The notes: generated by a model from the sequence alone, not told the origin. A DNA stretch of 32,000 bases from Candidatus Saccharimonadota bacterium (GCA_001761425.1 CP012986.1:30001-62000), one strand, 5' to 3'; positions 4,568 through 30,751 are shown, counted from the first letter of the stretch. Numbers and translations: made by a program.

Positions 4568-4729
4568 TAGCCCCCCCAGGATTCGAACCTGGGTCAGGGG
4601 ATGACTTCACCCCGAAGATCAGAGATCTTCTATATCCTCATCCCTGAGGATTTGAGGTTCCAAAGTCCCCTATCATTAGCCGCTCCGAGTCTAACTCAGA
4701 TAGAGCTTTGACCACTAGACCAGGGGGCT
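4568..4729 (-). tRNA. tRNA-Gln(UUG) with two introns: D-arm ~4676-4707 and anticodon loop 37/38 ~4603-4659
   Basis: Hand fold of the sense strand: AGCCCCC TG GTCT AGTGGTCAA [32 nt] TGAT A GGGGA CTTTGG [57 nt] A TCCCC TGAC CCAGG TTCGAAT CCTGG GGGGGCT A. The acceptor stem is 7 bp, and the T-arm and anticodon stem pair perfectly. No CCA is encoded. Confidence 0.8.
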
Positions 4730-5842: not shown

Positions 5843-5970
5843 CTTGTCCCTGATTGCCTCCTTCCTTTGAATAAAAAAAGACGCTAAAATATATTAACCG
5901 TTATTACAGCCCTTTGTATAGCCTATGGTAAACATGGAGGAAAAATCTGTCGGAGAAAAAGAGACTTTTT

Positions 5971-6076
5971 TAGCCCCCCCAGGATTCGAACCTGGGTCGA
6001 GAGGGCCAGGGCCTCTCATGAATTGCCGCTCCGAGTATAAACTCAGATAGAGCTTTGACCACTACACCAGGGGGCT
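5971..6076 (-). tRNA. tRNA-Gln(CUG) with one D-arm intron (~6022-6054)
   Basis: Hand fold: AGCCCCC TG GTGT AGTGGTCAA [33 nt] TCAT G AGAGG CCCTGGC CCTCT CGAC CCAGG TTCGAAT CCTGG GGGGGCT A. The acceptor and T-arm are identical to the other tRNA-Gln. Confidence 0.75.
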
Positions 6077-11184: not shown

Positions 11185-11274
11185 CGCCGGAGCTGGGATT
11201 TGAACCCAGGAGAGGCGGGTATGCCTCACCGGTTCTCAAGACCGGCACAATTAGCCAGACTCTGTCACTCCGGC
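11185..11274 (-). tRNA. tRNA-Ser(UGA), class II with a long variable arm
   Basis: Hand fold: GCCGGAG TG ACAG AGTCTGGCTAA TTGT G CCGGT CTTGAGA ACCGG TGAGGCATACCCGCCTCTC CTGGG TTCAAAT CCCAG CTCCGGC G. Length is 90 nt. Confidence 0.85.
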
Positions 11275-11419
11275 AAATACGAAGTATTTGCGTCGGATCG
11301 AGAAAACTCTTCCGAGTTTTCGATCTCCGGCAATTCCCGTAGCAATTGAGTACTTGCCGCATTCAGCTCAAAGAGCTTTCAGCGTCTCTGTCGAAAATAT
11401 GAGGCCTAAGTGTCTTATA

Positions 11420-14500: not shown

Positions 14501-15910
14501 TTATCCCATGAAGTCTTTGAGTGCTGGGTGGAGTTCTTCCATGTGTTTCTGTGCTAGTTGTTCGTACAGCTTGTATAGGATCATGACGGTCAGTAGGATT
14601 CCTGTTCCTCCTCCGGCTGCCTGTGTCATGTTTGCTGCTGCTGCGAGGATTCCGACTGCTGCTCCTGACAGGACTGTTAGGCCTGGGATGTAGCGGTTGA
14701 GGACTTTTTTGATGATTCTTTTGTCTTTTCTGAATCCTGGTACTTTCATGCCTGTGTTCTGGATCTGGTCTGCGACCGAGTCTGCGTCCTGTCCGCTGGT
14801 TTTGACCCAGAAGATTGAGAACATGATTGATCCGAATGTGTAGACTGATCCGTAGAACAGGACGTGGAATAGGCTGTCTGTTCCGAGGAGCTGTAGGTTC
14901 TGGACTCCTGAGGTGATCAGGTTGGTTGCGAATCCTGTTGGTGCCTGTAGCCATGCTACGAGGCCTGAGCTTGCTGTTCCGTTGCTCATGCATCCTAGGA
15001 TTGAGCATCCGTTTTCTCCTGTTATTACTGTGGCTGCGATCTGGAGGTTGGATACGAGTGCTGCGATCAGGATGACTGGCATGTTGGATGTGTAGATGAA
15101 TTTGAGAGGCCATTTCTGTCCGAATCCTCTTGCGTTTCCGAATGTAAGCGGGATCTCGACTTTCATGGTCTGCATGTAGACTACCGCTGAGAAGACGAGT
15201 ACTGTGGATATGATAGGTAGTAGTGAGATGAATTCGTATGTCTGTAGGAACTGGAAGACTGCTCCTGTGGGATTGGCTCCGGGTGCGTTCCAGTAGAGTT
15301 CTGGAGGCACTGTTGAGGTTAAAGGAGAGATTATTGTTACGAATACCTGTTTGGATACTCCTGCTGCGATGAACAGGCCTGTACCGCTTCCGAATCCCCA
15401 TTTCTGGACTAGGTCGTCCATCAGTATGATGAGGAATCCTCCCAGTGCGATCTGGCCTCCTAGAAGCATTATGAGGCCTATGTCGCCTCCTACGTTTCCG
15501 AATGTTCCTGATAGTACGTATCCGAAGGCCTGTACTACTGTCAGTCCGTATGCGAGTACTTTCTGTGCTGATTGGAATTTCCGTTTTCCTTCCTGGGTGT
15601 TGGTGTTCCATGGAAGTAGTTCGGATCCGACCATCATCTGGAGTACGATGCTTGATGTGACGATGGGTCCGATTCCGAGTGTGATTATAGAACCGATCTG
15701 TGCTCCTAGAAGTGTCTGGAATGTTTCAAGCTGCTGGAGGGCCTGGTTTACGCTCTCGACGTCTCCTCCGTATACGTTGATGGAGCCTAGTGTGAAGTAG
15801 AGTATAAGGACTATACCGGTCCATGTGAGCATCTCCTTAAGGGATTGTTCTTTCTCGGGTTCTTTGATTCCTGGAAGGTAGGATGCTATCTGGACCAGTG
15901 TTGAGGCCAT
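14501..15910 (-). CDS. secY: preprotein translocase subunit SecY
   Basis: 469 aa with 10 TM segments. ...GIKEPEKEQSLKEMLTWTGIVLILYFTLGSINVYG... and a conserved position after L30-L15. Confidence 0.95.
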   Translation of the reverse strand: MASTLVQIASYLPGIKEPEKEQSLKEMLTWTGIVLILYFTLGSINVYGGDVESVNQALQQLETFQTLLGAQIGSIITLGIGPIVTSSIVLQMMVGSELLPWNTNTQEGKRKFQSAQKVLAYGLTVVQAFGYVLSGTFGNVGGDIGLIMLLGGQIALGGFLIILMDDLVQKWGFGSGTGLFIAAGVSKQVFVTIISPLTSTVPPELYWNAPGANPTGAVFQFLQTYEFISLLPIISTVLVFSAVVYMQTMKVEIPLTFGNARGFGQKWPLKFIYTSNMPVILIAALVSNLQIAATVITGENGCSILGCMSNGTASSGLVAWLQAPTGFATNLITSGVQNLQLLGTDSLFHVLFYGSVYTFGSIMFSIFWVKTSGQDADSVADQIQNTGMKVPGFRKDKRIIKKVLNRYIPGLTVLSGAAVGILAAAANMTQAAGGGTGILLTVMILYKLYEQLAQKHMEELHPALKDFMG

Positions 15911-15923
15911 GTGTTTATTCCTC
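15903..15923. repeat. 21-nt direct repeat, copy 1 (gaggccatgtgtttattcctc), containing the real secY start
   Basis: Perfect match to 16048-16068. Confidence 0.9.
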
Positions 15924-16047
15924 CAATTGGTTATGCTCTATTGATACGCAAGATGGGGTTCTGTGAACCCCGTTTTCTGATGATGAAATATGGAAAGCAG
16001 GTTTTCCTGTAGCAGGAGATTTTTGATTTCCAGCTTTCAGAAGTTTC

Positions 16048-16068
16048 GAGGCCATGTGTTTATTCCTC
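16048..16068. repeat. 21-nt direct repeat, copy 2, containing the rpl15 stop codon
   Basis: Perfect match to 15903-15923. Confidence 0.9.
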
Positions 16069-18820: not shown

Positions 18821-18865
18821 TGTCGAAAACCTCTGGTTTTCTGTGAAATCTTGAGATCTGTGGTT
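18821..18865 (-). repeat. intergenic hairpin spacer (L6 to L32e)
   Basis: On the sense strand, AGATC-TCAA-GATTT then CACAG then GAAAACC-AGA-GGTTTTC (18825-18841), then CGACA-ATG. Confidence 0.7.
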
Positions 18866-19396
18866 TTATTCATTTGTATCGACCTCTGTGATGTAGACGC
18901 CGTCCTGGAAAGTTCTTGGATCTCTGTCGCCTTTTTTGCAGAGCTGTTCGATACGTGCTGCTGTCTGGCTTACTGATTCCTTGTTAGCTCCGGTGATTGT
19001 CAGGTCTTCGCCGTCTACTTCGACTGTTACTCCTTCGATGATGTCTGCTGTTCTTGGCTTTCTTTCTCCCATGAAGTTTTCGATCACTACCTGGTCGTCT
19101 TCCTGTTTGAGGGTCATCGGGAAGTGTGCGTAGACCCCCTGCATCTTGTAGACGTGTGGTTCCTGGAGTCCGTCCACAAGGTTCTGTACGTGGCTTCTGT
19201 AAGTGTTCAGTATGCTTGTCACGTTTTTCTTCGTGGATCTTGTGGAGAACTTTACTTCTTCATCTACTTCCACGTTGATCATGGCGTGTTCCAGCTTCTT
19301 CGAGACTTCCTCTCCGTTTCCTTCGATAGTGAGGACTCCTTCGCCGTACGAGGCCTCAAAGTCTTCTGGAATCTTGGCTGTAACTGATTCTGTCAT
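18866..19396 (-). CDS. rpl6: 50S ribosomal protein L6 (uL6)
   Basis: 176 aa: ...GVLTIEGNGEEVSKKL... and ...VTVEVDGEDLTITGANKESVSQTAARIEQ... Operon position is conserved. Confidence 0.93.
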   Translation of the reverse strand: MTESVTAKIPEDFEASYGEGVLTIEGNGEEVSKKLEHAMINVEVDEEVKFSTRSTKKNVTSILNTYRSHVQNLVDGLQEPHVYKMQGVYAHFPMTLKQEDDQVVIENFMGERKPRTADIIEGVTVEVDGEDLTITGANKESVSQTAARIEQLCKKGDRDPRTFQDGVYITEVDTNE

Positions 19397-19411
19397 TGTG
19401 TTTCTTCCTCT

Positions 19412-19801
19412 TCAGTAGACGTATCCGAGGAGTTTTCCTCCGACGTCCTCTTTTCTTGCTTTTGAATGGGTCATAACTCCCTGGCTTGTTGTTACCAGGA
19501 TTTCTCCGAATCCCTGCGCTGGCAGGTATCTCTTGGCCCATTTTTCGAACTCATCGTTGCCGACTGCAAAGTTCGGCTTGATAGGCTGGCATTCGTTGAT
19601 CTGAGGCTTAACCTCTACCTTGAACTTGCCTCCCTGACCGTCTTCGACGAGTTCGAATACTCCGATGTATCCTAGCTGCTGTAGCTGGATAAGTACGTTC
19701 TTGACAAGGTCGCTCGTCGGCGAAATCATCGCATGAGTCTTACCCTGTCTTGCTGCATTGTTGATCGAACTTAGTGCGTCGCTTAGTGTATCATGTTGCA
19801 T
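19412..19801 (-). CDS. rps8: 30S ribosomal protein S8 (uS8)
   Basis: MQHDTLSDALSSINNAARQGK... and ...GEILVTTSQGVMTHSKARKEDVGGKLLGYVY. Confidence 0.95.
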   Translation of the reverse strand: MQHDTLSDALSSINNAARQGKTHAMISPTSDLVKNVLIQLQQLGYIGVFELVEDGQGGKFKVEVKPQINECQPIKPNFAVGNDEFEKWAKRYLPAQGFGEILVTTSQGVMTHSKARKEDVGGKLLGYVY

Positions 19802-19815
19802 TTACTTGTCCACCT

Positions 19816-20040
19816 CTATTTTAACTGCTCGAATCCAAGTTCTTCAGCGATTTCACGGAAGCACTGTCTGCAGTAGTTAAGGCCGTATTTCGAGATAACT
19901 CCGCGACCTGTTCTACCGCATCTTCGGCATTCCTTCTTTTCCTTGCCGAAATCTCTCTTCTTCGGTGCGTTGTGCTTTTCGAACTTCTCTTTTTTTCCTT
20001 TCTTGTGCTTGATTTGATCAAGGACTGCTTCATAACTCAC
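19816..20040 (-). CDS. rps14: 30S ribosomal protein S14 (uS14, zinc-ribbon type)
   Basis: [29 protein letters not shown] start directly after the SD hairpin. Confidence 0.9.
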
Positions 20041-20099
20041 TCGAAAACACCTCTTGTTTTCTGCGTGATCGTGAAATTCTTTGAATTTCTAACCATTTT
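20041..20099 (-). repeat. intergenic paired-hairpin spacer (L5 to S14)
   Basis: On the sense strand, GAAATTC-AAA-GAATTTC (20073-20089), linker ACGATCACGCA, then GAAAACA-AGAGG-TGTTTTC (20043-20061), then GA-GTG. Confidence 0.75.
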
Positions 20100-20609
20100 C
20101 TACTTCACCTCTGCTCCGAGCTCGTTTTCTACGAACTCCTTTGCCTCTTCATCGGATACCTTGTGACTTTTTCCGATTGTTGAAGGCTTGTGATCTCTCT
20201 TCTTGACCCTGTAACCAGGTCTTTCAAGGATCACGGTAACTTCGAAACCTTTCATGCCGATGTCCGCATCATAGTCGACTCCTGGAACATCGATGTACTC
20301 GCTGATTCCGAATGAAAGGTTTCCTTCTCCATCGAAGGCCTGTTCGGACAGTTCGTTGTTTGCTGCTGGAAGTACTTTTTCGAGGAATTCTTTTGCTTCC
20401 TCTCCTCTGAGTGTTACTGATGCTCCTACGTTGAGGCCTTCTCTGAGGCCGAAGCTTTTTGCTTCTTCTCTGGATTCTACTCTGACAGGTTCTTGATCGG
20501 TAAGCTTTTTTACAAGTTTGAAGGCCTTTTCTACGCCGTCTCCGACCTGTTCTTCAGAGATGTTGACTGATACCTTGCTGATGTTGATTTCTTTCATCTC
20601 TTCGCTCAT
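20100..20609 (-). CDS. rpl5: 50S ribosomal protein L5 (uL5)
   Basis: ...SFGLREGLNVGASVTLRGEEAKEFLEKVL...GNLSFGISEYIDVPG... Confidence 0.95.
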   Translation of the reverse strand: MSEEMKEINISKVSVNISEEQVGDGVEKAFKLVKKLTDQEPVRVESREEAKSFGLREGLNVGASVTLRGEEAKEFLEKVLPAANNELSEQAFDGEGNLSFGISEYIDVPGVDYDADIGMKGFEVTVILERPGYRVKKRDHKPSTIGKSHKVSDEEAKEFVENELGAEVK

Positions 20610-20658
20610 TGTCCGAAAACACCTCTGGTGTTTTCTGCATCACGAAAATGTTTGATTT
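20610..20658 (-). repeat. intergenic paired-hairpin spacer (S4e to L5)
   Basis: On the sense strand, GAAAAT-CAAAC-ATTTTC (20644-20660, overlapping the S4e stop), linker GTGATGCA, then GAAAACACC-AGA-GGTGTTTTC (20615-20635), then GGACA-ATG. Confidence 0.75.
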
Positions 20659-21324
20659 TCATTGTCCATCACCTAGCTCGATGTTTTCTACTGCTACAAG
20701 GTTTTCGAGCTGTGTCTCGAATTTCTGGTCTTCTTTTTCGACTGTTCCTGTGTCTTCGTCGAGGTTTCTTCTGTTGATTTCTTTGAGTTCTGCGATGTCT
20801 CCTGCGTGGCTTCCTGAGATTACAAGGACCTGTGCTCCTTCTTCTCTCTTGACTTCTTCTGCTTGTCCGTTGAGCAGGAGGCTGCTTCCTGTGTCATGGT
20901 TTTCCTCTGTCCTGTAGTTGTCGCCGTTGTGGAGGTGGTAGACAAATTCCTCGCCTTCTGTCTTCTTGTCTCCTATTCTTACGATTGTTTTCTCTGAGTC
21001 ATCTACTTCGACGAATTTGAGGTCGTTTCCGTCGATGATTACTCTGTAGGCCTCGTCTACTTCTTCGAGTGTTACTACGTCGAGTACGCCGATTCCTTCT
21101 TTGACGTCGCGGACTCTTTCTCCGTTCCTGAGTAGCTGGCCGTTTCTGATTATCTGTTTTGCTTCTTTTTCGCTTTCTGCGTATCCGGTAACGTCTCTCA
21201 AGAAGAGAACTGCCGGGATTGCTGTCTTGTTGCTCCTTGAGCCTTTTATCCCTGAGACGTAGCTGTAATGCTTCCTCTCGATAGGATAATGCTTCGGAGC
21301 TGAAAGTCGTTTTTGATGTGTCAT
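20659..21324 (-). CDS. rps4e: 30S ribosomal protein S4e
   Basis: MTHQKRLSAPKHYPIERKHYSYV... plus a KOW-like middle region. Confidence 0.95.
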   Translation of the reverse strand: MTHQKRLSAPKHYPIERKHYSYVSGIKGSRSNKTAIPAVLFLRDVTGYAESEKEAKQIIRNGQLLRNGERVRDVKEGIGVLDVVTLEEVDEAYRVIIDGNDLKFVEVDDSEKTIVRIGDKKTEGEEFVYHLHNGDNYRTEENHDTGSSLLLNGQAEEVKREEGAQVLVISGSHAGDIAELKEINRRNLDEDTGTVEKEDQKFETQLENLVAVENIELGDGQ

Positions 21325-22035
21325 TTAATTGTCACCTTTCTCCTTTTCCTCTTCGGTTTTCTCTTCTGCGTCTTCTTCCTCGTCTTCTGAGGCCTCTTCC
21401 TCTTCAGAATCTTCAGATTCCTCTGATCCAGTTTCTTCTTCCTGTTCTGTGTTTTCGTTTTCAGCTTCTTCCTCTGTTTCTTCTTGTTCGTCTATTTCTT
21501 CCTGGATCTCTTCGAGTTCGTCTTCGTCGATGTCCATATCTTCCATGGACTGTCCTCCGCCCTGCATCTGCTGCATCATTTCGTCAGCTTCGTCTTCTTC
21601 AAGGGCTTCTTCGACTTCCTCTGAGTCAACCTGGATCTGTCCAGAGTCCTCGATCTCGTATTTTTCGATTCTGTCATCTTCTTCTAGGTTCAGGGCCTGT
21701 GCCTGTAGGTTGGAAGGCCTAAAAGGTACTTCGCTTGTGGATCCGTCCTGACGGGTTACTTCAAGTCCGTTGATGTAGACTTTTTCTTTGCCTCTGTCGA
21801 TATTTGATACGATTCCTTCTGCACCTTTTCTGTCGCCTCTCATGACCTTTACGCGGTCTCCGAGGTTGAGGCTGATTGAACGTGTTCCGAGTTCTTCTCT
21901 AAGTGTGTCGGAGAGATTTACTGAGATTAAAGTATCTTTTATGTGCTGTGGAGCGTTTTCCCTGTACTTCCTCTGCTTCTGAGGGTTCTCACTTGAATTC
22001 CAGTCCTTGCTCCAGTTTTCTGTCGTGTTACTCAT
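21325..22035 (-). CDS. rpl24: 50S ribosomal protein L24 (uL24) with a ~110-aa hyperacidic C-terminal extension
   Basis: KOW core LNLGDRVKVMRGDRKGAEGIVSNIDRGKEKVYINGLEVTRQDGS. From about residue 125 the sequence is almost entirely E/D/Q. Confidence 0.92.
   Translation of the reverse strand: MSNTTENWSKDWNSSENPQKQRKYRENAPQHIKDTLISVNLSDTLREELGTRSISLNLGDRVKVMRGDRKGAEGIVSNIDRGKEKVYINGLEVTRQDGSTSEVPFRPSNLQAQALNLEEDDRIEKYEIEDSGQIQVDSEEVEEALEEDEADEMMQQMQGGGQSMEDMDIDEDELEEIQEEIDEQEETEEEAENENTEQEEETGSEESEDSEEEEASEDEEEDAEEKTEEEKEKGDN
21386..21486. repeat. 101-nt module, copy A (in the uL24 tail)
   Basis: Hand alignment to 24391-24491 gives 7 mismatches in 101 nt. Confidence 0.85.
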
Positions 22036-22089
22036 TTACGAAAACACCTGTGTTTTCTGTGAATCATGAAAATCTCTGATTTTCAGCAT
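22036..22089 (-). repeat. intergenic paired-hairpin spacer (L14 to L24)
   Basis: On the sense strand, GAAAATC-AGA-GATTTTC (22068-22084), linker ATGATTCACA, then GAAAACAC-AG-GTGTTTTC (22040-22057), then GTAA-ATG. Confidence 0.75.
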
Positions 22090-22491
22090 TTACACCACCT
22101 GTGATGCGATTTTTCCGATCGGGCTGAACCTCTGGACTACTTCTTTTGCGATAGGGCCTTTGGTTACCGATCCTTTTGGAAGAAGGTTTTCTTCTTCGAC
22201 GAGGACTGCTGCGTTGTCCTCGAATTTTACTCTGAGGCCTTCAGGCCTCTGGTATTCTTTTGCCTGTCTTACGATGACGGCGTCGAAGACCTGGTGTTTT
22301 ACTTCTTGGTCTCCTTTCAGTACTTTTACTTTGACAATGTCTCCGACTCCTGCGGAGTTTCTTCTGGAACGTCTTCCTTTCTGGCTTCTGACTCCGATGA
22401 CTTTCAGTTTTTTTGCTCCGGAGTTGTCTGCACATGTAAGCTCTGCTCCGATGTCCAGTGTTCTGGTGATATTGGCTCCCAGTGGCTTCAC
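22090..22491 (-). CDS. rpl14: 50S ribosomal protein L14 (uL14)
   Basis: ...IGAELTCADNSGAKKLKVIGV... GTG start overlaps the S17 stop by 1 nt. Confidence 0.95.
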   Translation of the reverse strand: MKPLGANITRTLDIGAELTCADNSGAKKLKVIGVRSQKGRRSRRNSAGVGDIVKVKVLKGDQEVKHQVFDAVIVRQAKEYQRPEGLRVKFEDNAAVLVEEENLLPKGSVTKGPIAKEVVQRFSPIGKIASQVV

Positions 22492-22826
22492 TACTGTTCA
22501 CCTTCTTCGTCGTTTCTGATCTGTACGATAACGGAGGATATTGTCTTGGAAATAGGCCTTGATTCTACGATACCTACGTCGTCTCCTTCTTCTATGTCCA
22601 GGCATTCAGGTACGTGAGCTGTAATCTTGGTATTTCTTCTTTCCTTTCTTTCGTATTTGGGAACACTCTCTGCGGTCTCCCATCTTACTGTTGCGGATTT
22701 CTGCATCTTCGTGGACTGCACTTCTCCCGTAAAAGTACTTCCTCTCACGGATAGATCTCCGTGGAACGGGCAGTGCTTGTCGTCGCATTCTTGTTCTGGT
22801 TCTTTTACGTCAAGTCCGATTCCCAC
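22491..22826 (-). CDS. rps17: 30S ribosomal protein S17 (uS17)
   Basis: (M)GIGLDVKEPEQECDDKHCPFHGDLSVRGSTFTGEVQS... I prefer GTG 22826, which has AGGTGA 8 nt upstream, over the track start at GTG 22838, which has no SD. Confidence 0.9.
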   Translation of the reverse strand: MGIGLDVKEPEQECDDKHCPFHGDLSVRGSTFTGEVQSTKMQKSATVRWETAESVPKYERKERRNTKITAHVPECLDIEEGDDVGIVESRPISKTISSVIVQIRNDEEGEQ

Positions 22827-23057
22827 TGTTCTGTTCACCTATGTTGTTGTACAAACCTTCCACAGGAAAGACAGCTTCTGGATTCCCGACCATCAGGCCT
22901 TCAGGTAGAGAAGAGAGCATCAAACACAAGCGGTTTTTCATAGCTCTCCACCCGAAGTATCGATCCACGCACTGGAAATCCGGACAATGGATTTCAAGGC
23001 CTGAAACCGACTTCAAGCGGTCAAGGGGAAAAAACTCGGTCTTTCCCTTCAAGGTCT

Positions 23058-23094
23058 GTACCCATGAAAACGAAGCTAAACTTTAAAAGGGTGG
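23058..23094 (-). promoter_or_regulatory. promoter of the S17-to-SecY operon
   Basis: On the sense strand, CCACCCTTTTAAAG, then 8 nt, then TCGTTTTCATGG (23062-23073), then GTAC. The architecture nearly matches the L3 promoter at 29240-29276. Confidence 0.55.
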
Positions 23095-23160
23095 TTTACG
23101 TGTGGCAAGATTTTAACCCTGGCCGTATTTCATATTTGCAGATACTTGTTTCACGTGAGT

Positions 23161-23625
23161 ATGTTACAGGGTACAGGCCTTGCGGTACATGGTTACAGTA
23201 GGTATGTGGATGAGGAGGCTTTCAGAGACGCAGGCCTAGAGATAGCAGATGAAGTGCCTGTATACGGGATTGAGGCCTCACACAAATCTCAGGGCCTTAC
23301 CGGTGATTTCTATGAGGATACTTTCGGGGAGATAGAACACGGTAGAAACGGTGCGGTGGCTTCAGACGATCTTGAAGGCCTTGAAGAGCCTTTCTATGTC
23401 TTTGGAGGTCTGGTAAGTGAGTGTGTTCCCGGTGCGGTCTATTCTGTCCAGAAATCTGGTTTTGAGGCCTATGTCATGGAAGATGCATCTTTCGAGAAGG
23501 TTGAGGATGATTTCATGACCTATGATGAGATGAAGGCCTCTGACAGGGATTTTGGAGAGGTATTTGATAATCTGGGGTGGCTGGGTGTGCCGACTTTGAC
23601 TTTGGATGAGCTTGTTGAGAAATAA
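23161..23625 (+). CDS. hypothetical acidic protein; C-terminal half weakly resembles the isochorismatase/cysteine-hydrolase fold
   Basis: ATG 23161; the track uses TTG 23146. FYVFGGLVSECVPGAVYSVQKSGFEAYVMEDAS resembles the G-x-x-x-x-x-CV...G-(F/Y)-x-V-x-V-x-x-DA motif. The canonical N-terminal DxQxxF strand is not evident. Confidence 0.5.
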   Translation: MLQGTGLAVHGYSRYVDEEAFRDAGLEIADEVPVYGIEASHKSQGLTGDFYEDTFGEIEHGRNGAVASDDLEGLEEPFYVFGGLVSECVPGAVYSVQKSGFEAYVMEDASFEKVEDDFMTYDEMKASDRDFGEVFDNLGWLGVPTLTLDELVEK

Positions 23626-23666
23626 GATTTTATGAGAGAAAGTAAGAGAATATGGAGGGGAGTGTT

Positions 23667-23978
23667 CTATGCTTCGACTTCGATGTTTTTGCGGTCGAAG
23701 CCTTCGTCTTCCAGGATGTCTACGATTCTGCGGGTGTGGTCTCCCTGGAGTTCTATGTGACCTTCTTTTGCTGTTCCACCACAGGCAAGTTTGGATTTGA
23801 GTGTGGAGGCGAGGTCCTGGAGATCAACTGAGTCTTCAAGGCCTTCGATGACGGTCATTTCTTTGTTGTAGCTTCTGGAGTCGATTTTGACTGTGATTTT
23901 CTGATCCTCGCGTGCGATGCTGTCGCAGACGCAGAGGTCTTCAGGCATTCCGCATTTTGGACAAGTGGACTCTGCCAT
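23667..23978 (-). CDS. sui1: translation initiation factor aSUI1 (eIF1 homologue)
   Basis: CPKCGMPEDLCVCD zinc knuckle followed by ITVKIDSRSYNKEMTVIEGLE...LKSKLACGGTAKEGHIELQGDH. Confidence 0.9.
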   Translation of the reverse strand: MAESTCPKCGMPEDLCVCDSIAREDQKITVKIDSRSYNKEMTVIEGLEDSVDLQDLASTLKSKLACGGTAKEGHIELQGDHTRRIVDILEDEGFDRKNIEVEA

Positions 23979-23985
23979 TGAATAT

Positions 23986-24189
23986 CTATTCGGAGTTCTG
24001 TTCGTTGAGAACTGTTTTGATCCTTGCGATGGTTTTCTTCATCTCTTTGATTCTTCCCGGATTGTCTGTGAATCCTCCGACTTCTATCTGTCCTTTTTCC
24101 TGGACCAGTTCTTTCTGAAGGTCTGTTTTTCTTTCCTTGAGTTCGGATTTATCCATGTCCCGGATTTCGTCTGCTGTTAAGATTGCCAC
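23986..24189 (-). CDS. rpl29: 50S ribosomal protein L29 (uL29)
   Basis: ILTADEIRDMDKSELKERKTDLQKELVQEKGQ...GRIKEMKKTIARIKTVLNE. GTG start. Confidence 0.9.
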   Translation of the reverse strand: MAILTADEIRDMDKSELKERKTDLQKELVQEKGQIEVGGFTDNPGRIKEMKKTIARIKTVLNEQNSE

Positions 24190-24215
24190 TGTTTGATCAC
24201 TCTCGCTGGAAATTT

Positions 24216-25292
24216 TTATGCTTTCTGGCCTTCCAGCCAGTCCACGAATGTTGTCCGGTTTTTGTTGCCTTCTTCTGCTTCAAGCAGTGCGTCGAAGTCA
24301 GGGCTGTCAAGTTCCGAGATCATGTCCTTTGCGTCACTGATTGTTCCTGCGACGATCTCATCGTAGTCGATTTCGTCACTTGATTCTTCGTCTGAGGCCT
24401 CTTCCTCTTTAGACTCTTCAGATTCCTCTGGTTCGGTTTCTTCTTCCTGTTCTGTGTTCTCGTTTTCAGCTTCTTCTTCTGTTTCTTCTTGGTCAGCTAG
24501 TTCGTCTTCGTCGATCTCTTCGAATGCGTCTCTTACTTCGTCTTTGCTGATGTCTGTGTCTCCTTCTATTTCTTCAGTTCTGTCTTCGATTGCTCTTTCG
24601 AGTTCTGCAGAGGTCATGTTGTCTGCTTCTTGGATGATTTCTTCTATTGTCTCTGTCCTGTCCTGTGCCTGTTTTCCTTCTTCTGTGTGGTGGAGGATTT
24701 CTTCGCTGACGTCTACGTCTCTGTGCTTGAACTGTGGTAGTTCTTTCATGATGCGGACTTTGACACCGATTGCTCCTGGCTTTGTTCTTGCCAGTGCGTA
24801 TCCTTTCTGGACGTTGTCCTTGGAAGTGTTTCCGCATCTCTTGACGTATCCGTAGTTGAATTTTTCTGTTCTTCCACGGTTTCCGGAGAGTTTTCCTGTG
24901 ATCTCGATCTCTGCTCCGATAACTCCGGCTTCTTTCATACGTCTGAGGTATGTATAACCTACACGCTTTGCGTGGCCTCCTTTCTGAAGCCAGTCTGCGA
25001 TCGAATCTGCGACTACGTTTGCGTCTGCGTCAGGTTCATCGATCTCGTTGACCTCGATCTGAGGGTTTTCAAAATCGAATTCCTTTTCGATGTCATCTGT
25101 AAGTTCGTTGATCCTTGAGCCTCCTCTTCCGATGACGAGGCCTGGTCTCTGAGCCCAGATAACGATTTTTGTGGATGTAGGTGTTCTCTGAAGATCTGAC
25201 TTGGAGTATCCTGCACCTTCAAGCTCGTCGGCGAGGAACTCGTCAAGTCTTACCTTGCGTGCACCTTTTTCGATAAATTCTTTCTCTTGCAT
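24216..25292 (-). CDS. rps3: 30S ribosomal protein S3 (uS3) with a ~150-aa acidic C-terminal extension
   Basis: KH domain ...TKIVIWAQRPGLVIGRGGSRINELTDDIEKEF... and ...AKRVGYTYLRRMKEAGVIGAEIEITGKLSG. The tail begins near residue 200. Confidence 0.93.
   Translation of the reverse strand: MQEKEFIEKGARKVRLDEFLADELEGAGYSKSDLQRTPTSTKIVIWAQRPGLVIGRGGSRINELTDDIEKEFDFENPQIEVNEIDEPDADANVVADSIADWLQKGGHAKRVGYTYLRRMKEAGVIGAEIEITGKLSGNRGRTEKFNYGYVKRCGNTSKDNVQKGYALARTKPGAIGVKVRIMKELPQFKHRDVDVSEEILHHTEEGKQAQDRTETIEEIIQEADNMTSAELERAIEDRTEEIEGDTDISKDEVRDAFEEIDEDELADQEETEEEAENENTEQEEETEPEESEESKEEEASDEESSDEIDYDEIVAGTISDAKDMISELDSPDFDALLEAEEGNKNRTTFVDWLEGQKA
24391..24491. repeat. 101-nt module, copy B (in the uS3 tail)
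   Basis: About 93% identical to 21386-21486. A further shared 16-mer gttcgtcttcgtcgat lies at about 24501-24516 and about 21526-21541. Confidence 0.85.
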
Positions 25293-25373
25293 TACTGAAC
25301 TTCACCTTTTGCGATGTGGTTCATCTGAGAATTTCTCCTTGAAGATTTGATTTCGTTCATTAGTATCCCTCTT
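25293..25373 (-). repeat. degenerate member of the hairpin-spacer family (L22 to S3)
   Basis: Contains the SD AGGTGA (25302-25307) and imperfect GAA..TTC inverted repeats, but no perfect stems. Confidence 0.35.
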
Positions 25374-25793
25374 TTACTGTTCTCCCACTACGATTTTGAC
25401 GTGGGCTGCTTTGGTTTTTTCTCCTCTGAAGCGTCCTGGAGTTACGAATTCCTGTCCCTGGTTTGTGATGACGTTGTCTACTGCTAGTGCGCCAGGGTTG
25501 AGGCCTTCGTGTTCTGCGTTGGCCTCTGCTTCTTCCAGGACTTCGAGGATGTGTTCTGCTGCTTTTACCGGGAAACGTCCTGAGTCTCCTGCACCTGAAC
25601 GATGTCCGACGTCGCTGTCGAATTTTGTGTACGGTACCGGAAGGTCTTCCCTGATTACTTTTTCGAGCTTTCCTTTTGCTTTTTCGACTGTGTCTCCGTC
25701 GATGAAGCGGCCGATTTCTGTGGCGTCTTTCCAGGAGATCGGCATGTTTTTGCCGAAGGCCTTTGCCTGGTGTGTCTCTGTTTCTAAAGTCAT
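25374..25793 (-). CDS. rpl22: 50S ribosomal protein L22 (uL22)
   Basis: ...AKAFGKNMPISWKDATEIGRFIDGDTVEKAKGKLEKVI...GRFPVKAAEHILEVLEEAEANAEH... Confidence 0.93.
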   Translation of the reverse strand: MTLETETHQAKAFGKNMPISWKDATEIGRFIDGDTVEKAKGKLEKVIREDLPVPYTKFDSDVGHRSGAGDSGRFPVKAAEHILEVLEEAEANAEHEGLNPGALAVDNVITNQGQEFVTPGRFRGEKTKAAHVKIVVGEQ

Positions 25794-25906
25794 TGCCGAA
25801 ACTCACCTGAGTTTCTGGTAAGGCTGAAAACGAAATTCCGTGAGGAATTTCTTGGAGAAAATTCTCCGAATTTTCGAATCTCTGATTTTCGCATAATCTT
25901 ACACCT
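25794..25906 (-). repeat. expanded paired-hairpin spacer (S19 to L22) with three hairpin-A units
   Basis: On the sense strand, GAAAATC-AGA-GATTC (imperfect, 25876-25890), GAAAATTC-GGA-GAATTTTC (25857-25875) and GAAATTCC-TCAC-GGAATTTC (25832-25851). These are followed by GAAACTCA-GG-TGAGTTTC (25798-25815) and GGCA-ATG. Confidence 0.75.
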
Positions 25907-26284
25907 TTACTTGAGTGGCACGTGCTTGGAGGAGCGTGTTGCTCCGAGTCCTGGTGCACTGTGTGATACTTCTTTCCTGGTTTTTGCGAATTCTCCGAAG
26001 TAGTGGCCGATCATTTCTTCGTCGATTTCTACGGATTCGAATCCCTGTCCGTTGTAGATTTCTATTGTTGTTCCTACCATTTCTGGGAGGACGATCATGC
26101 TTCTGAGGTGTGTCTGGACTGTGTCTTTCTCTTTGATCTTTTCGAGAAGCTTTTTTTCGCTTTCTCTGAGGCCTCTGTTGAGTTTTCTTCTGCCTCTTGA
26201 GTTGAGCAGGTCTGCGAATTCGTCTCTGCTCATTTCCTGTAGTTCGTCCAGTGTTTTTCCTCTGAATGTAAAGTCGTCTGACAT
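25907..26284 (-). CDS. rps19: 30S ribosomal protein S19 (uS19)
   Basis: ...[47 protein letters not shown]... Confidence 0.95.
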
Positions 26285-26296
26285 TTTCTAGTTCAC

Positions 26297-27001
26297 CTAG
26301 TCGTTGTTCTTTTTTCCGCTTCTTTTGGCGCCTATGCTTCCAACTTTGCTTCCTGGGGAAGAGCTTTTGGAAACGGTCTTAGGCTGTCCTGGTTTTGCTG
26401 ATCCACCGAATGGGTGGGCTACTGCGTTCATGGATACGGCGGAAACTGTTGGGTATGATAGTCCACGTGCTTCTGCCTTCTTCGCTGCGTTTCCTGCCTT
26501 TACCAGTGGCTTGTCTTCTCTGCCTCCTGCAGCTACTTTTCCTACTGTTGCCCTGCATTCAGGGCTGATTTTCTTGAAGGCCTTGCTTGGCAGTCTGATC
26601 CTTACGCCGTTTTTTTCGTGTGATACGACGAATGCGTATGTTCCGGACGCTTTTACGAGCTTGCCTCCGCTGTTCGGCTGCGTTTCAATGTTATGGATCG
26701 GGACTCCTTCAGGGATTTCTCCGATTGGGAGTGTGTTTCCTTCCTTGATTTCTGCGGAGACTCCTACTTCGATTTCGTCTCCTGTGGAGAGGCCTTCTGG
26801 TGCAAGAACGTTTCTTATGTCGCCGTCTTCGAACTCTACTACTGCGACTGGTGCTGTTCTTGCTGGGTCGTGTACTATATCTTTGACTTCTCCTGTGATT
26901 TCTGCGTTCTTTGTGCGTACTCTGCCTTTTCCTTTGTGGGAACTGGCTCTGTACTTTGGAGAGGCCTTTCCTCTTTTCTGTGATCTGATTGGTCTACCCA
27001 T
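26297..27001 (-). CDS. rpl2: 50S ribosomal protein L2 (uL2)
   Basis: ...GNTLPIGEIPEGVPIHNIETQPNSGGKLVKASGTYAFVVSH... and ...MNAVAHPFGGS... Confidence 0.96.
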   Translation of the reverse strand: MGRPIRSQKRGKASPKYRASSHKGKGRVRTKNAEITGEVKDIVHDPARTAPVAVVEFEDGDIRNVLAPEGLSTGDEIEVGVSAEIKEGNTLPIGEIPEGVPIHNIETQPNSGGKLVKASGTYAFVVSHEKNGVRIRLPSKAFKKISPECRATVGKVAAGGREDKPLVKAGNAAKKAEARGLSYPTVSAVSMNAVAHPFGGSAKPGQPKTVSKSSSPGSKVGSIGAKRSGKKNND

Positions 27002-27013
27002 GTAGTATCACCT

Positions 27014-27283
27014 TTACATCATTCCCAGTTCGGTCGCTACGTCCATTGCGTCGTCACTTTCTGACAAGCGGACGTAGGCCTTTTTCTGGGCCTGTGGTGT
27101 GACGTTTGTGTTGACTTTTTTAACCGTCACATTGAACAGGGTTTCTACTGCGTCTTGGACTTCTCCTTTGTCTGCGTTGAGGTCTACTATGAGAACGATT
27201 TTGTTCTCTCTGTCGATCTGGTCCATTGCCTGTTCTGTCATGTGAGGGTTTTCGATTACATTCCATGCTTCGTCGTCGTTCAT
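27014..27283 (-). CDS. rpl23: 50S ribosomal protein L23 (uL23)
   Basis: ...ENKIVLIVDLNADKGEVQDAVETLFNVTVKKVNT... Operon position is conserved. Confidence 0.92.
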   Translation of the reverse strand: MNDDEAWNVIENPHMTEQAMDQIDRENKIVLIVDLNADKGEVQDAVETLFNVTVKKVNTNVTPQAQKKAYVRLSESDDAMDVATELGMM

Positions 27284-27349
27284 TATCGAAACTCACCTGT
27301 GAGTTTCTGGTAATCCATAAAATCTTTGATTTTGGTCATTTGGTTCCAC
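27284..27349 (-). repeat. intergenic paired-hairpin spacer (L4 to L23)
   Basis: On the sense strand, AAAATC-AAA-GATTTT (27319-27333), linker ATGGATTACCA, then GAAACTCAC-AG-GTGAGTTTC (27288-27307), then GATA-ATG. Confidence 0.75.
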
Positions 27350-29092: not shown

Positions 29093-29239
29093 TGTAATCG
29101 TTTCTCCTATAGGCCTCAAAAATAGAGGCATAGATGTGTTAAAGCTTTCAATAATCCAGTTGAATCTAGTCGATGAAAGCTCTCTCACCAGAGGCCCACT
29201 CCACAAGAGTCGGCTTGTCCCCTCAAGAAAACTCGAAGG

Positions 29240-29276
29240 GTAACCATGAAAACGAGACCAAGTTTTAAATAAGGGG
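29240..29276 (-). promoter_or_regulatory. promoter of the L3-to-SUI1 operon
   Basis: On the sense strand, CCCCTTATTTAAAAC, then 7 nt, then TCGTTTTCATGG (29244-29255), then TTAC. The implied 5' leader to the L3 ATG is about 150 nt. Confidence 0.55.
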
Positions 29277-29332
29277 TGACAGGTAGGTGAGAAAACTACA
29301 CTGTAATATAATGGGAAAAGGAGGAAAGAGGT

Positions 29333-30751
29333 TTAGCCCTTGATATTCACTACAGGCCTCAAACGGGCGACTTTCTCGCCGATACCGAGTTCGTCGGAAA
29401 TTTTGATGACTTCGTCTACGTCTTTGTAGCTGCCTGGTGCTTCTTCTGCGATCGTCGAGCCTGAAGCCGCTTTGACGTAGATTCCTTCACGTTTCAGGTC
29501 GTCCTGGACGTCTCCGCCCCAGTAATCCTGTTTCGCCTGTGTTCTTGACTTTAGTCTTCCTGCGCCGTGGGCTGTAGATCCGAAGGAAAGGCCTGGAGAG
29601 TTTTTTCCGCCGGAGAGGATGTAGCTGGAGGTTCCCATGCTTCCAGGGATGAGTACTGGCTGGCCGACTTCAGAGTAAACTTCGGGGACTTCTTCTCTTC
29701 CTGCTGGCATTGCTCTTGTCGCGCCTTTCCTGTGTACAAGCAGTTCTTTGTCTTCTCCGTCTACTTCGTAGGTTTCCTCTTTAGCGATGTTGTGGCAGAC
29801 GTCGTAGAGAAGTTCTGAATCAAACTCTTCGAACAGGCGTTCCATGGAGTGTCTGATAGCTTCTGTGATCGCCTGTCTGTTTGCCCATGCAAAGTTTGCA
29901 GCAGCGTACATCGCATAACGGTAGTCATCCGCCAGTTCGTCTCCGATAGGAGCATAGATCAATTCTTTATCAGGAAGTTGGTCCACGGTTTCAGTGTATT
30001 CTTTCTCGAAGTCTCTCAGGTATTCAGTACATGTCTGGTGTCCGAGGCCTCTACTCCCGGAATGTATCATTATCACGATCTGGTTTTTTTCAAGACCGAA
30101 GGCCTTGGCTTTTTCCTCTTCGAAGGTTTCTTCTACTTTCTGTACTTCGAGGAAGTGGTTTCCTGATCCGAGGCTTCCGACCTGTTTGAGGCCTCTCTTT
30201 TTAGCGTCTTCCGGGACTTTTTCTGGCTTTCCTGGAAGCCTCCCATTTTCCTCGCATCTTTTGAGATCGCTTTCCTTGGCGTGGCCGTTTTGCAGCATCC
30301 ATTCAGCTCCTTTTTCAAGAATTTCTTCAAGATCTTCTTTATCGACGTCGATGTAGCCTCCTTTGCCGAGTCCGCACGGTACTTTGTCGAAGAGGATATT
30401 TGCGATTTGTTCCTCTTTTCCCTTGATATCGTCGTATTTGAGCGAGGTTTTGAGGACTCGTACGCCACAGTTTATGTCGTAGCCGATTCCTCCAGGACTT
30501 ATTACGCCGTTTTCCATGTCTATGGCTGCGACTCCTCCGATTGGGAAGCCGTAGCCCTGGTGTCCGTCGGGCATGACGATCGAGTGTTTCTGGAGGCCTG
30601 GCAGGGTTGCCACGTTTTTGATCTGTTCTAGTGTATCGTCTCCTTTGATCTCTTCCAGCAGTTCTTCGTTTGCGTAGATCCTGGCAGGTTTCTTCATCTT
30701 TCCTTCTTTCGGGATCTCGTAGATATTTTCGGATACTTTGTTGAGTTCCAT
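29333..30751 (-). CDS. rtcB: RNA-splicing ligase RtcB
   Basis: ...MPDGHQGYGFPIGGVAA..., GGIGYDINCGVR, GSGNHFLEVQ, HSGSRGLGHQ and HGAGR are the conserved RtcB metal- and GMP-binding motifs. Confidence 0.95.
   Translation of the reverse strand: MELNKVSENIYEIPKEGKMKKPARIYANEELLEEIKGDDTLEQIKNVATLPGLQKHSIVMPDGHQGYGFPIGGVAAIDMENGVISPGGIGYDINCGVRVLKTSLKYDDIKGKEEQIANILFDKVPCGLGKGGYIDVDKEDLEEILEKGAEWMLQNGHAKESDLKRCEENGRLPGKPEKVPEDAKKRGLKQVGSLGSGNHFLEVQKVEETFEEEKAKAFGLEKNQIVIMIHSGSRGLGHQTCTEYLRDFEKEYTETVDQLPDKELIYAPIGDELADDYRYAMYAAANFAWANRQAITEAIRHSMERLFEEFDSELLYDVCHNIAKEETYEVDGEDKELLVHRKGATRAMPAGREEVPEVYSEVGQPVLIPGSMGTSSYILSGGKNSPGLSFGSTAHGAGRLKSRTQAKQDYWGGDVQDDLKREGIYVKAASGSTIAEEAPGSYKDVDEVIKISDELGIGEKVARLRPVVNIKG

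Follow-up and report, generated by a model that had tools for sequence, protein, structure and literature searches.

Spacers in the ribosomal protein gene cluster

The window, that is, the whole 32,000-nt stretch of DNA analyzed here, is a Nanohaloarchaeota ribosomal protein gene cluster. Several of its minus-strand gene junctions hold spacers that, according to an earlier note on this DNA, share a layout of two consecutive hairpins, denoted A and B, ahead of the downstream start codon. All six spacers described in that note are real and read as claimed, far beyond chance; two further copies are present in the window, at the L22-S3 and L15-SecY junctions, the latter (15911-16059) outside the range that the note covered. 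The copies, the mini-ORFs that span them and the direct repeats detected at some of them are listed below, with scores in bits.

27284-27349, minus strand: L4-L23 copy; hairpin A at 27319-27333, hairpin B with the Shine-Dalgarno (SD) sequence at 27288-27307; 48.3 bits
27283-27339, minus strand: L4-L23 mini-ORF, MTKIKDFMDYQKLTGEFR, ending in TAATG
25794-25906, minus strand: S19-L22 copy with four hairpins, an imperfect one at 25875-25890, then 25857-25875, 25832-25851 and hairpin B at 25798-25815
25790-25894, minus strand: S19-L22 mini-ORF, 34 codons, ending in ATGA
25293-25373, minus strand: degenerate L22-S3 copy with weak hairpins, the B-like one at 25296-25323
25292-25360, minus strand: L22-S3 mini-ORF, MNEIKSSRRNSQMNHIAKGEVQ, ending in TAATG
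22036-22089, minus strand: L14-L24 copy; hairpin A at 22067-22085, hairpin B at 22040-22057; 58 bits
22036-22089, minus strand: L14-L24 mini-ORF, MLKIRDFHDSQKTQVFS
22087-22093 and 22033-22039, minus strand: L14-L24 direct repeat GTAAATG, 7 nt
20610-20658, minus strand: S4e-L5 copy; hairpin A at 20644-20660, hairpin B at 20615-20635; 67.6 bits
20606-20662, minus strand: S4e-L5 mini-ORF, MKIKHFRDAENTRGVFGQ, with an ATGA overlap at each end
20659-20667 and 20606-20614, minus strand: S4e-L5 perfect 9-nt direct repeat, GGACAATGA
20041-20099, minus strand: L5-S14 copy; hairpin A at 20073-20089, hairpin B at 20043-20061; 45.2 bits
20037-20096, minus strand: L5-S14 mini-ORF, ending in GTGA
18821-18865, minus strand: L6-L32e copy; weak hairpin A at 18846-18859, hairpin B at 18825-18841; 23.8 bits
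18817-18873, minus strand: L6-L32e mini-ORF, MNKTTDLKISQKTRGFRQ, starting within the end of L6
15903-16068, minus strand: strain-specific L15-SecY insertion with a 124-nt hairpin-rich insert at 15924-16047; 14 bits
16048-16068 and 15903-15923, minus strand: L15-SecY 21-nt repeat, GAGGAATAAACACATGGCCTC, two perfect copies
15915-16055, minus strand: L15-SecY mini-ORF, 46 codons

Hairpins and Shine-Dalgarno sequences

Perfect hairpins with stems of 7 bp or more number 26 in the window, compared with 8.6 +/- 2.9 in dinucleotide shuffles; 14 of these are of the GAA..TTC type (0.26 expected), and 10 hairpins fall within 467 nt of spacer (0.13 expected). A script recovered hairpin B as a perfect stem of 7-9 bp in all six originally described spacers and also found hairpins of the A type, except that the first hairpin of the S19-L22 spacer is imperfect (GAAAATC/GATTCG); in this spacer, the hairpin pair is present as claimed but the count differs, four hairpins instead of two. 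In the RNA folding of each spacer, A plus B form the minimum-energy structure (z-scores -1.3 to -3.4), and the hairpins, which are rich in A and U, reach no more than moderate stability (-7.5 to -14 kcal/mol for spacers with two hairpins). The SD core (GGTG/AGGT) occupies the loop of B and its 3' arm, at 11-15 nt ahead of the start codon, which is the same distance as at element-free junctions, and it is paired inside B in every copy, in agreement with the earlier claim that B holds the SD. Contrary to the earlier note, hairpin B is not the sole carrier of an SD; the native SD survives upstream, ahead of the mini-ORF. The hairpin at 22975-22995, previously regarded as a relative of these structures, is part of a long conserved operon leader, separate from the element.

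The compensatory stem changes reported earlier are borne out by the larger set, in which 21 different B stems are found among 28 copies. In the model-fitted alignment, 97.6% of the cells pair, and 13 of the 16 pairs show changes on both sides. However, G.U pairs are not more common than other mismatches (11 vs 20 of 830 cells), so that maintenance of a palindrome at the DNA level fits equally well, and the covariation, which also fits a functional RNA, does not prove selection on RNA as the earlier note had argued. An alternative pairing between the 3' arm of A and the 5' arm of B extends over 7-10 bp in some copies (L003, L130 and L141 among the related loci).

The only match in the window at the Rfam gathering score is one tRNA, with no element family matched, and between 18700 and 27500 at E <= 1 there was nothing but a chance match to a lncRNA. 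No account of the element was found in the literature.

Distribution and mobility among related loci

Across 18 related loci and 23 cluster junctions, 19 junctions hold the element in one genome or more, no junction holds it in every genome, and the positions vary by genome. The number of filled junctions per locus is 8 in the window, 11 in L130 and 0 in Nanosalina VS9-1 (L006); whole lineages, L005 and L006 among them, are devoid of the element, and 22 element sites were detected in 240 kb of the relatives. The earlier note had staked its proposal of a conserved regulatory RNA or operator of ribosomal protein operons on conservation at orthologous junctions. This conservation is not observed: presence and absence differ at every junction, even between strains that are 98.5-99.3% identical. 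The strain with this level of identity to the window, L145, differs from it by two spacer insertions with flanking direct repeats. It lacks the 145-nt L15-SecY block, bordered in the window by the 21-nt perfect repeat that spans the SD as well as the stop codon of L15 and the start codon of SecY, and it contains an additional 45-nt hairpin pair nested in the linker of the L5-S14 copy and flanked by a TCACG repeat. Copies are rapidly gained and lost, and the four-hairpin versions are nested copies.

Individual junctions show the same variation. The S19-L22 copy is present also in L016 and missing from L001, whereas the L22-S3 copy has counterparts in both (L016 4435-4487, 33.7 bits) and is therefore older. 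In L016, where the S4e-L5 site is empty, the two genes overlap at ATGA; S14 starts with GTG in the window and with ATG in relatives with an empty L5-S14 site; and the ATG that starts the L6-L32e mini-ORF is the L32e start in relatives in which the two genes overlap by 8 nt. Copies are bordered by direct repeats of the target that include the start codon. The following repeats were identified in the related loci.

L4-L23 junction, L010: AAAATGA, 7 nt
L32e-L19e junction, L130: GAATGAGT, 8 nt
L18-S5 junction, L130: GGTGATTTCGA[A/G]TGAGCGAA, 20 nt

The direct-repeat lengths (5, 7, 7, 8, 9, 20 and 21 nt) do not fit a single classical transposase, and neither a transposase nor a parent insertion sequence was detected in the window and the related loci examined.

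Sequence subfamilies are common to unrelated junctions and genomes. In particular, linker subfamilies are common to non-orthologous junctions, and an identical 63-nt copy is found at two unrelated junctions, S5-L30 in L010 and L11-L1 in L025. A role specific to ribosomal proteins, as initially suggested, is not supported, given the copies at the DnaK-DnaJ, Rrp4-Rrp41, S6e-aIF2gamma, Rpo7-Spt4 and RHH-phosphodiesterase junctions. Furthermore, one in-frame copy interrupts the HhH-GPD domain of endonuclease III, with about 25 residues in place of 4 in the solved structure 8a5c, and hairpins of the same type, there lacking an SD, occur downstream of genes, in the gaps of convergent gene pairs and next to tRNAs.

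These observations make it fairly probable that each of the spacers holds a member of a family of small insertional palindromic repeats of the Nanohaloarchaeota, with a unit of about 45 nt that consists of hairpin A, a linker and hairpin B. The hosts of the element are salt-loving nano-archaea, and its sites are gene junctions. The ends of the element (ATG... and SD...ATGA) resemble native junctions, which makes the insert boundaries ambiguous, and exchange by recombination from one junction to another could look like transposition. Every junction copy is sense-oriented, and all eight window copies are within the ribosomal protein cluster, which would fit a selected function as well.

An alternative, in line with the earlier note, is a dedicated cis-regulatory RNA, in which hairpin B is an SD-sequestering gate or a protein operator that adjusts ribosomal protein synthesis to salt, temperature or a ribosomal protein, and the spread of the element reflects adaptive recruitment. 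The paired SD core, the strong covariation, the uniform orientation of the junction copies and their enrichment in the ribosomal protein cluster of the window and L130 are all consistent with such a role, and the 7-10 bp pairing of A with B in some copies would free the SD, by analogy with leader-peptide attenuators. However, on reading the sequence, most window copies offer just 4-5 bp for this pairing; no common peptide or loop motif points to a stalling signal or a ligand; entire lineages lack the element and close strains differ; and the same element resides at chaperone, exosome and RNA polymerase junctions, between convergent genes and within a coding sequence. We therefore consider a dedicated regulatory RNA unlikely.

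Bridging mini-ORFs and proposed relay translation

A mini-ORF that starts with ATG bridges 25 of the 30 long spacers, compared with 1.98 expected from shuffles (P = 2e-8 against the one-in-three frame chance). These mini-ORFs consist of 15-46 codons and begin at the duplicated native start codon; their stop codons lie on or adjoin the real start codon (ATGA, GTGA, TAATG), ending at -3 to +3 of its first base in 25 of the 30 spacers. At the independent locus L130, 9 of 11 copies follow the same rule under automatic detection. Element cores are poor in stop codons, with 1.87 of the three sense-strand frames open compared with 0.88 in shuffles, and the strain events at L15-SecY and L5-S14 both leave the mini-ORF open. 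Neither the bridging mini-ORFs nor the flanking direct repeats had been noticed in the earlier note, and both alter the mechanism.

In Haloferax volcanii and Escherichia coli, gaps of about 20 nt nearly abolish termination-reinitiation coupling (PMC10666635), so a relay would be needed across an inserted spacer. Given compact operons in which genes abut or overlap, the surviving copies would be only those that leave translation intact. The first copy of the duplicated junction would retain the native SD and start codon, the latter now opening the mini-ORF. Ribosomes leaving the upstream gene would translate this mini-ORF, melting hairpins A and B, and terminate at its stop codon, which adjoins or overlaps the real start codon. 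Reinitiation would follow at this start codon, with the ribosomes retained by the SD of the B 3' arm at the normal distance of 11-15 nt. When upstream translation is absent, hairpin B would hide the downstream SD, and the downstream gene would therefore stay strictly coupled. The translation of the mini-ORFs is predicted from the nucleotide sequence.

The best reading is a small insertional palindromic repeat that tight operons tolerate, since its own SD, together with relay translation, maintains translational coupling. The element probably persists at junctions owing to its own ribosome-binding site and the tiny spanning reading frame that passes ribosomes to the next gene. We infer that the hairpins belong to the element as such, and that it can live at junctions owing to the open frame and the SD that hairpin B contains. 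SD gating might then be a consequence of relay translation rather than the work of a salt- or protein-dependent operator.

A more far-reaching version, which we consider unlikely, is that the element is not simply junk that is put up with: the open frame, the hairpin-locked SD and the overlapping stop and start codons would make up a self-spreading 'coupling cassette' that acts as a translational gate and moves by a route unlike that of known prokaryotic transposases. The target duplications of 5-21 nt would in this case suggest template switching or an RNA-derived copy. If so, the downstream gene would be made only after a ribosome has just translated the spacer, and the strength of the gate would depend on hairpin stability and hence on salt or temperature.

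Apart from relay translation, the hairpins could be REP-like processing or stability elements that shield the upstream mRNA from exonucleases or mark endonuclease cuts and so set per-gene levels within an operon. The palindromic, intergenic, multi-copy character of the element and the SD-less hairpins found downstream of genes, in convergent gaps and near tRNAs agree with this possibility, which nevertheless leaves unexplained the bridging ORF with overlapping stop and start in 25 of 30 spacers, the fixed SD-start distance and the copy inside a coding sequence. As a substitute for the insertional repeat it is improbable; such a role may exist alongside it.

It is very improbable that the mini-ORFs are genuine genes that encode a small-protein family (17-20 residues) and were duplicated between ribosomal protein genes. 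All of them possess an SD as well as a start codon and show tight coupling on either side, and some peptides are alike, for example, M.KIKDF..D..ENTRGVFE and MSENRRFS..AEN....FE. However, a single nucleotide motif, hairpin A, is read in all three frames across copies; the peptides change at almost every nucleotide change; differences between close copies are almost all non-synonymous; stem changes hit two codons at once; and the mini-ORFs vary from 15 to 46 codons and are present sporadically. Also very improbable are intron-like elements excised by the archaeal splicing endonuclease: a hairpin pair does occur in a long tRNA intron (about 4568-4720), and L002 and L070 have tRNA-like 3' halves into which elements are inserted, but no bulge-helix-bulge motif is evident at the boundaries on reading the spacer folds, and efficient removal from mRNA would give no reason to keep the bridging ORF and SD.

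Relationship to known repeats and translational systems

The insertional repeat family resembles MITEs and other small dispersed repeats (Correia, ERIC and BOX elements; archaeal MITEs of Sulfolobus, Halobacterium and Haloquadratum) in being short, non-coding, multi-copy and mostly intergenic, with palindromic ends (GAAAA at one end, TTTTC at the other), flanking direct repeats and insertion polymorphism among strains. MITEs can alter the expression of neighboring genes (PMC10969869). The element is small, non-autonomous and multi-copy, as MITEs are, with units of about 45 nt, of which the window has 8, L130 has 11 and the 240 kb of relatives have 22 sites. However, MITEs are usually 50-500 bp long and produce target duplications of one fixed length, in contrast to the shorter unit and the 5-21 nt direct repeats observed here. 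As for terminal inverted repeats, the ends of the element, (C)GAAAAY... and ...RTTTTC(G), do have inverted orientation, but they measure just 6-7 nt and fall within the two hairpins. Finally, the element carries an SD and a relay ORF, whereas the cited review does not mention a Shine-Dalgarno sequence or ribosome binding for any MITE.

Rickettsia palindromic elements are also translation-compatible and are found in-frame within protein-coding genes, a situation seen once for the present element. They are bacterial, about 100-150 bp long and encode a conserved peptide, whereas the present element is about 45 nt long, its peptide is not conserved and is read in three frames, and most copies are at gene junctions, where they supply an SD. 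The REP/BIME sequences (including REPINs and their RAYT transposases) are extragenic palindromic hairpins of 20-40 nt, often paired, located in operons and with effects on mRNA (PMC2817692, PMC3116915). REPs have a conserved GTAG head and inverted doublets and are not known to duplicate their target, in contrast to the GAAA start, tandem hairpins and direct repeats of the present element.

With respect to translation, the overlapping or abutting stop and start codons (ATGA, GTGA, TAATG) and the upstream SD are those of termination-reinitiation coupled pairs (Huber et al., 2019, 2023). At the upstream end, the native junction is kept; the known pairs couple gene to gene directly, whereas the element would couple them via an inserted relay cistron. 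Unlike the autoregulatory operators or leaders of ribosomal protein operons, the element is not conserved at orthologous positions across related genomes. In ermC-type attenuators, a leader cistron of about 16-20 codons has a stop codon that overlaps the main start, a hairpin contains a second SD, and the structure unfolds when the leader is translated. The element has the leader ORF and the hairpin-held SD of the main gene but not the conserved stalling peptide, given that its peptides vary and are read in three frames. The synthetic 'bicistronic design' of Mutalik et al. from 2013 reportedly combines a short leader cistron, a second, hairpin-held SD near its 3' end and a stop/start overlap. 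The attenuators are dedicated leaders and the bicistronic design is engineered, whereas in the Nanohaloarchaeota the comparable arrangement appears to arise by repeat insertion at many junctions.

Genomic context

The junction elements considered here are units of about 45 nt in which hairpin A, a linker and hairpin B, the latter holding a Shine-Dalgarno (SD) sequence, follow one another (three-digit labels such as L001 denote the related loci and metagenome contigs compared, and labels such as L24 denote ribosomal proteins). They lie in an archaeal ribosomal-protein cluster that extends from L3 to SecY on the minus strand, from ~29.2 kb to 14.5 kb of the window. The closest public genomes are those of Nanohaloarchaeota. 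The S4e of the window is 87% identical to that of a Ca. Nanohalobium MAG (L001) at the protein level and 82% at the DNA level, and 52-72% identical to that of other Nanohaloarchaea. A Logan contig (L146) matches the window at 100% identity, and an ENA contig (L145) represents a strain with 98.5-99.3% identity.

The cluster is broken between SUI1 and S17 by a 159-codon ORF on the opposite strand (23146-23625, plus strand). At this position, the Nanoanaerosalina loci L013 and L014 contain an ORF resembling Rpp29, an RNase P protein (identified by eye only); the window and its close relatives show no Rpp29 gene at this site. The C-terminal tails of L24 (21386-21523) and S3 (~24390-24530), which are long and acidic, have ~140 nt in common at 87% DNA identity and look like a common or copied tail module; in other genomes, the tails of L24 and a further ribosomal protein end in a similar way (..DWLE.Q..).

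Structure of the junction elements

An earlier note on this DNA attributed a single layout to six spacers within 18821-27349 (minus strand), and the sequences at all six match that description. Hairpin B has a perfect stem of 7-9 bp in every spacer, hairpins of the A type are also found, and the SD core lies in the loop and 3' arm of B, as the note had proposed. The distance from the SD core to the start codon is 11-15 nt, the same as at ordinary junctions. RNA folding of each spacer yields A plus B as the minimum-energy structure (z-scores -1.3 to -3.4). In the window, 26 hairpins have perfect stems of 7 bp or more (8.6 +/- 2.9 in shuffles) and 14 hairpins are of the GAA..TTC type (0.26 expected), with 10 of that type found within 467 nt of spacer (0.13 expected). 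A covariance model built on eight copies, seven of which come from outside the window, detects four further copies in the window with scores of 45-58 bits and two more with ~24 bits, all six in the sense direction. Two copies were not listed in the earlier note:

15911-16059, minus strand: copy in the L15->SecY spacer, a strain-specific insertion
25293-25373, minus strand: degenerate copy in the L22->S3 spacer, also present in L001 and L016

No match of the element to an Rfam family reaches the gathering score or E <= 1. A scan of viral contigs with the hairpin A pattern gave 8 matches, all lacking hairpin B, which thus look like chance.

Insertional origin of the spacers

Comparison of filled junctions with their empty counterparts, that is, junctions with and without the element, shows that these spacers originated by insertion: the difference between the two consists of the element and a direct repeat of the target, start codon included.

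Direct repeats flanking the elements
S4e->L5, window: GGACAATGA, 9 nt; empty in L016, where the two genes overlap by ATGA
L14->L24, window: GTAAATG, 7 nt
L4->L23, L010: AAAATGA, 7 nt; empty in the sister locus L006
L32e->L19e, metagenome locus L130: GAATGAGT, 8 nt
L18->S5, L130: GGTGATTTCGA[A/G]TGAGCGAA, 20 nt

The same process is seen between near-identical strains. At L15->SecY, the window is 145 nt longer than L145, the excess consisting of a 124-nt insert and a perfect 21-nt repeat that spans the SD together with the stop and start codons. Conversely, the L5->S14 copy is 45 nt longer in L145, where the linker has gained two new hairpins flanked by TCACG repeats; nested insertion of this kind accounts for the four-hairpin versions. 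L010 and the metagenome contig L025 carry an identical 63-nt copy, the former at S5->L30 and the latter at L11->L1. GTG start codons are found at 8 of the 30 filled junctions and at 9 of 108 short junctions, a frequency that fits the right end of the element (...TTTTCGAGTGA).

Transposition, template switching and recombination between look-alike junctions are all possible modes of movement. A fold-back origin, with each hairpin being an inverted copy of its own target, was considered since the 3' arm of hairpin B at L18->S5 of L130 lies within the 20-nt repeat, and was dropped because the consensus of hairpins A and B is identical at junctions of unrelated native sequence.

Bridging mini-ORFs

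A mini-ORF, a frame that bridges the filled spacer, was defined by an ATG located -7 to +14 nt from the upstream stop codon and a frame open through the whole spacer. Such frames are present in 25 of 30 long spacers (1.98 expected from shuffled spacers). Each is preceded by a native SD, in or just past the end of the upstream gene, and its stop codon lies at -3 to +3, counted from the initial base of the downstream start codon, in the form of TAATG, ATGA, GTGA or TAAATG. This frame rule, tested against a one-in-three chance of frame, has P = 2e-8; it is obeyed by all eight window copies and also by the L130 copies that were not used in finding L130. The bridging frame stays open in both events that distinguish L145 from the window. 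Element cores are poor in stop codons, with 1.87 of three frames open in the sense direction and 1.55 in the antisense direction, compared with 0.88 in shuffles.

Hairpin A is read in all three frames, differing by copy, and the differences between close copies are almost exclusively amino-acid-changing substitutions. What is retained is the nucleotide sequence and an open frame, and not the peptide. The use of three frames and the lack of peptide conservation led us to reject the interpretation of the mini-ORFs as small-protein genes. An intron or bulge-helix-bulge element was likewise rejected, in view of the retention of both mini-ORF and SD.

Covariation of the stems

The earlier note took the paired changes in the stems as a sign of selection on RNA structure. 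The compensatory changes are indeed extensive, but they do not single out the RNA level. The 28 copies of hairpin B compared include 21 distinct stems, which have undergone compensatory change at positions 4-9. In an alignment that was fitted to the structure and includes some rows from the opposite strand of near-palindromes, 97.6% of the cells pair, changes on both sides occur in 13 of 16 pairs, and 107 cells are doubly changed (shuffles, 24.4 +/- 5.6; slid controls, 0-18). The excess of G.U pairs sought as proof of RNA-level selection is absent (11 G.U cells vs 20 with other mismatches), and the internal non-standard pairs show no G.U bias. Given covariation without this excess, the stems behave as well-kept perfect palindromes. 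They are compatible with RNA selection, and to the same degree with maintenance acting on the DNA or with derivation from a variety of master copies.

Distribution across genomes

Every cluster junction was extracted from 16 related loci and from L130. The suggestion that the spacers are a conserved ribosomal-protein operator does not hold in this survey, in which the element occupies different junctions in different genomes: 19 of the 23 cluster junctions are filled in at least one genome and none is filled in all. The window and L001 have four filled junctions in common; a further four are filled in the window but not in L001, and two in L001 but not in the window. In L130, 11 are filled. 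The element is absent from the Nanosalina VS9-1 locus (L006), from L005 and from the outgroups L013-L015. The linker subfamilies at L14->L24 differ among the window, L001 and L011, which suggests turnover at the same site.

A metagenome scan with the two-hairpin pattern identified at least 120 loci; the pattern required an exact hairpin A, so the scan is uninformative on variation in A.

Sites of the element in acidic-proteome contigs, among the metagenome matches listed
Junctions with the SD in hairpin B:
L11->L1 (L025)
DnaK->DnaJ (L046)
Rrp4->Rrp41 (L063)
S6e->aIF2gamma (L117)
Rpo7->Spt4 (L141)
RHH gene->phosphodiesterase (L133)
acidic-tail gene->S27ae (L127)
Element upstream of a separate native SD:
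LSm->L37e (L071)
AtpF->AtpA (L125)
Other sites:
between convergent genes (L031, L061)
in frame within the endonuclease III coding sequence (L124, 9403-9452; L062)

In the endonuclease III case, a single HhH-GPD domain (Pfam) spans the insert, and alignment with the solved structure 8a5c places ~25 residues in a loop where the latter has 4 (~21 extra). In L137 (9191-9233, antisense), an element seemingly fuses genes for an asparagine-synthase-like protein and a PP-loop ATPase into one 684-codon frame.

Double GAAA..TTTC hairpins without an SD are present in low-GC, non-halophilic archaeal contigs that encode type II GAPDH and PAN (e.g., L029, L039, L041, L044, L094, with five copies, L096, with two, and many others). 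Each hairpin has an extra short closing helix, CACAA..TGTG and CACA..TCGTG, and these might represent a wider archaeal family related to the element. Palindromes of 17 bp (GAAAATC..GATTTTC) form tandem arrays with a ~22-bp period in saline-lake metagenomes (L026, L045, L050, L057, L069, L077, L084, L090, L095, L112, L115, L126 and L143); these look like replicon iterons unrelated to the element.

Proposed mechanism

The comparisons establish the anatomy, insertional origin, frame rule and SD position; for the remaining steps, including mini-ORF translation and SD gating, we infer the following course from the sequences. The first copy of the duplicated junction would retain the native SD and start codon and drive the mini-ORF. 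A ribosome translating the mini-ORF would melt hairpins A and B, terminate at the stop codon overlapping the real start codon and reinitiate there via the SD of hairpin B. Without translation, hairpin B would conceal this SD, so that little independent initiation is expected. In some copies, a helix of 7-10 bp is possible between the 3' arm of A and the 5' arm of B and would release the SD in the manner of a leader-peptide attenuator; in most window copies, this helix has only 4-5 bp. Insertions that break the chain would be eliminated. Termination-reinitiation coupling fails at ~20-nt gaps in Haloferax volcanii and E. coli (PMC10666635).

Relationship to known systems and implications

Among known elements, the nearest are REP elements, the Rickettsia palindromic elements that insert in frame, and MITEs with other small dispersed repeats; in function, the nearest are native overlapping gene pairs, ermC-type leaders and synthetic bicistronic design. 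The element fails the membership tests for each family compared: the length of its direct repeats ranges between 5 and 21 nt, it has no known parent element, and both a GTAG head and a conserved peptide are lacking. The literature on repeats of Nanohaloarchaea and Nanohalobium and on MITEs with an SD or translational coupling yielded no description of it.

The elements show which insertions a very compact archaeal genome accepts at gene junctions and provide a natural test of coupling. The surviving insertions restore a series that leads from an SD and start codon through an open frame to a stop codon overlapping the next start codon. This supports the view that near-zero gaps are required for termination-reinitiation coupling, and makes the element a natural counterpart of synthetic bicistronic design. 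For annotation, such spacers are not to be treated as empty: they contain putative translated mini-ORFs and start codons shifted from ATG to GTG, and at least once an element is predicted to add residues within an enzyme. Insertion differences between near-identical strains are fine-scale markers for populations of Nanohaloarchaeota, and if the mode of movement proves new, the element would be an additional kind of archaeal mobile DNA.

Neighbouring hairpins in operon leaders and tRNAs

The S17 leader (22839-23120, minus strand) and the L3 leader (~29207-29440, minus strand) are 200-280 nt long, and in both a TATA-like box at the start precedes TCGTTTTCATGG(G/T)TAC. L016 (6206-6565) also carries a conserved S17 leader, in which the counterpart of the hairpin at 22975-22995 has changed with compensation (GAAACC../..GGGTTTC). 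The identification of the S17 leader as RNase P or SRP RNA was considered and rejected; the absence of an Rfam match for 22839-23120 and a start like that of the L3-operon leader make a long 5' leader more likely, which could be regulatory.

In the stretch 11268-11335 (minus strand), two hairpins (11302-11321 and 11273-11291) are located upstream of tRNA-Ser, flanked by copies of the 5' end of the tRNA itself, TGCCGGAG (11325-11332 and 11268-11275). The same layout is found in L010 (19140-19200, TGCCGAGG) and L004 (8520-8640, CTGCCGGGG), each repeat again being the tRNA's own sequence; the hairpin pair may be an insertion of the same kind at a gene 5' end or a functional leader. The tRNA-Arg called by ARAGORN (~4568-4720, minus strand) apparently belongs to a longer tRNA interrupted by a large intron, and a paralogous intron-bearing tRNA, uncalled by ARAGORN, is present at 5967-6076 (minus strand). 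The intron of the tRNA at ~4568-4720 contains a hairpin pair, ATCCTCA-GGGA-TGAGGAT and GAAGATC-TCT-GATCTTC.
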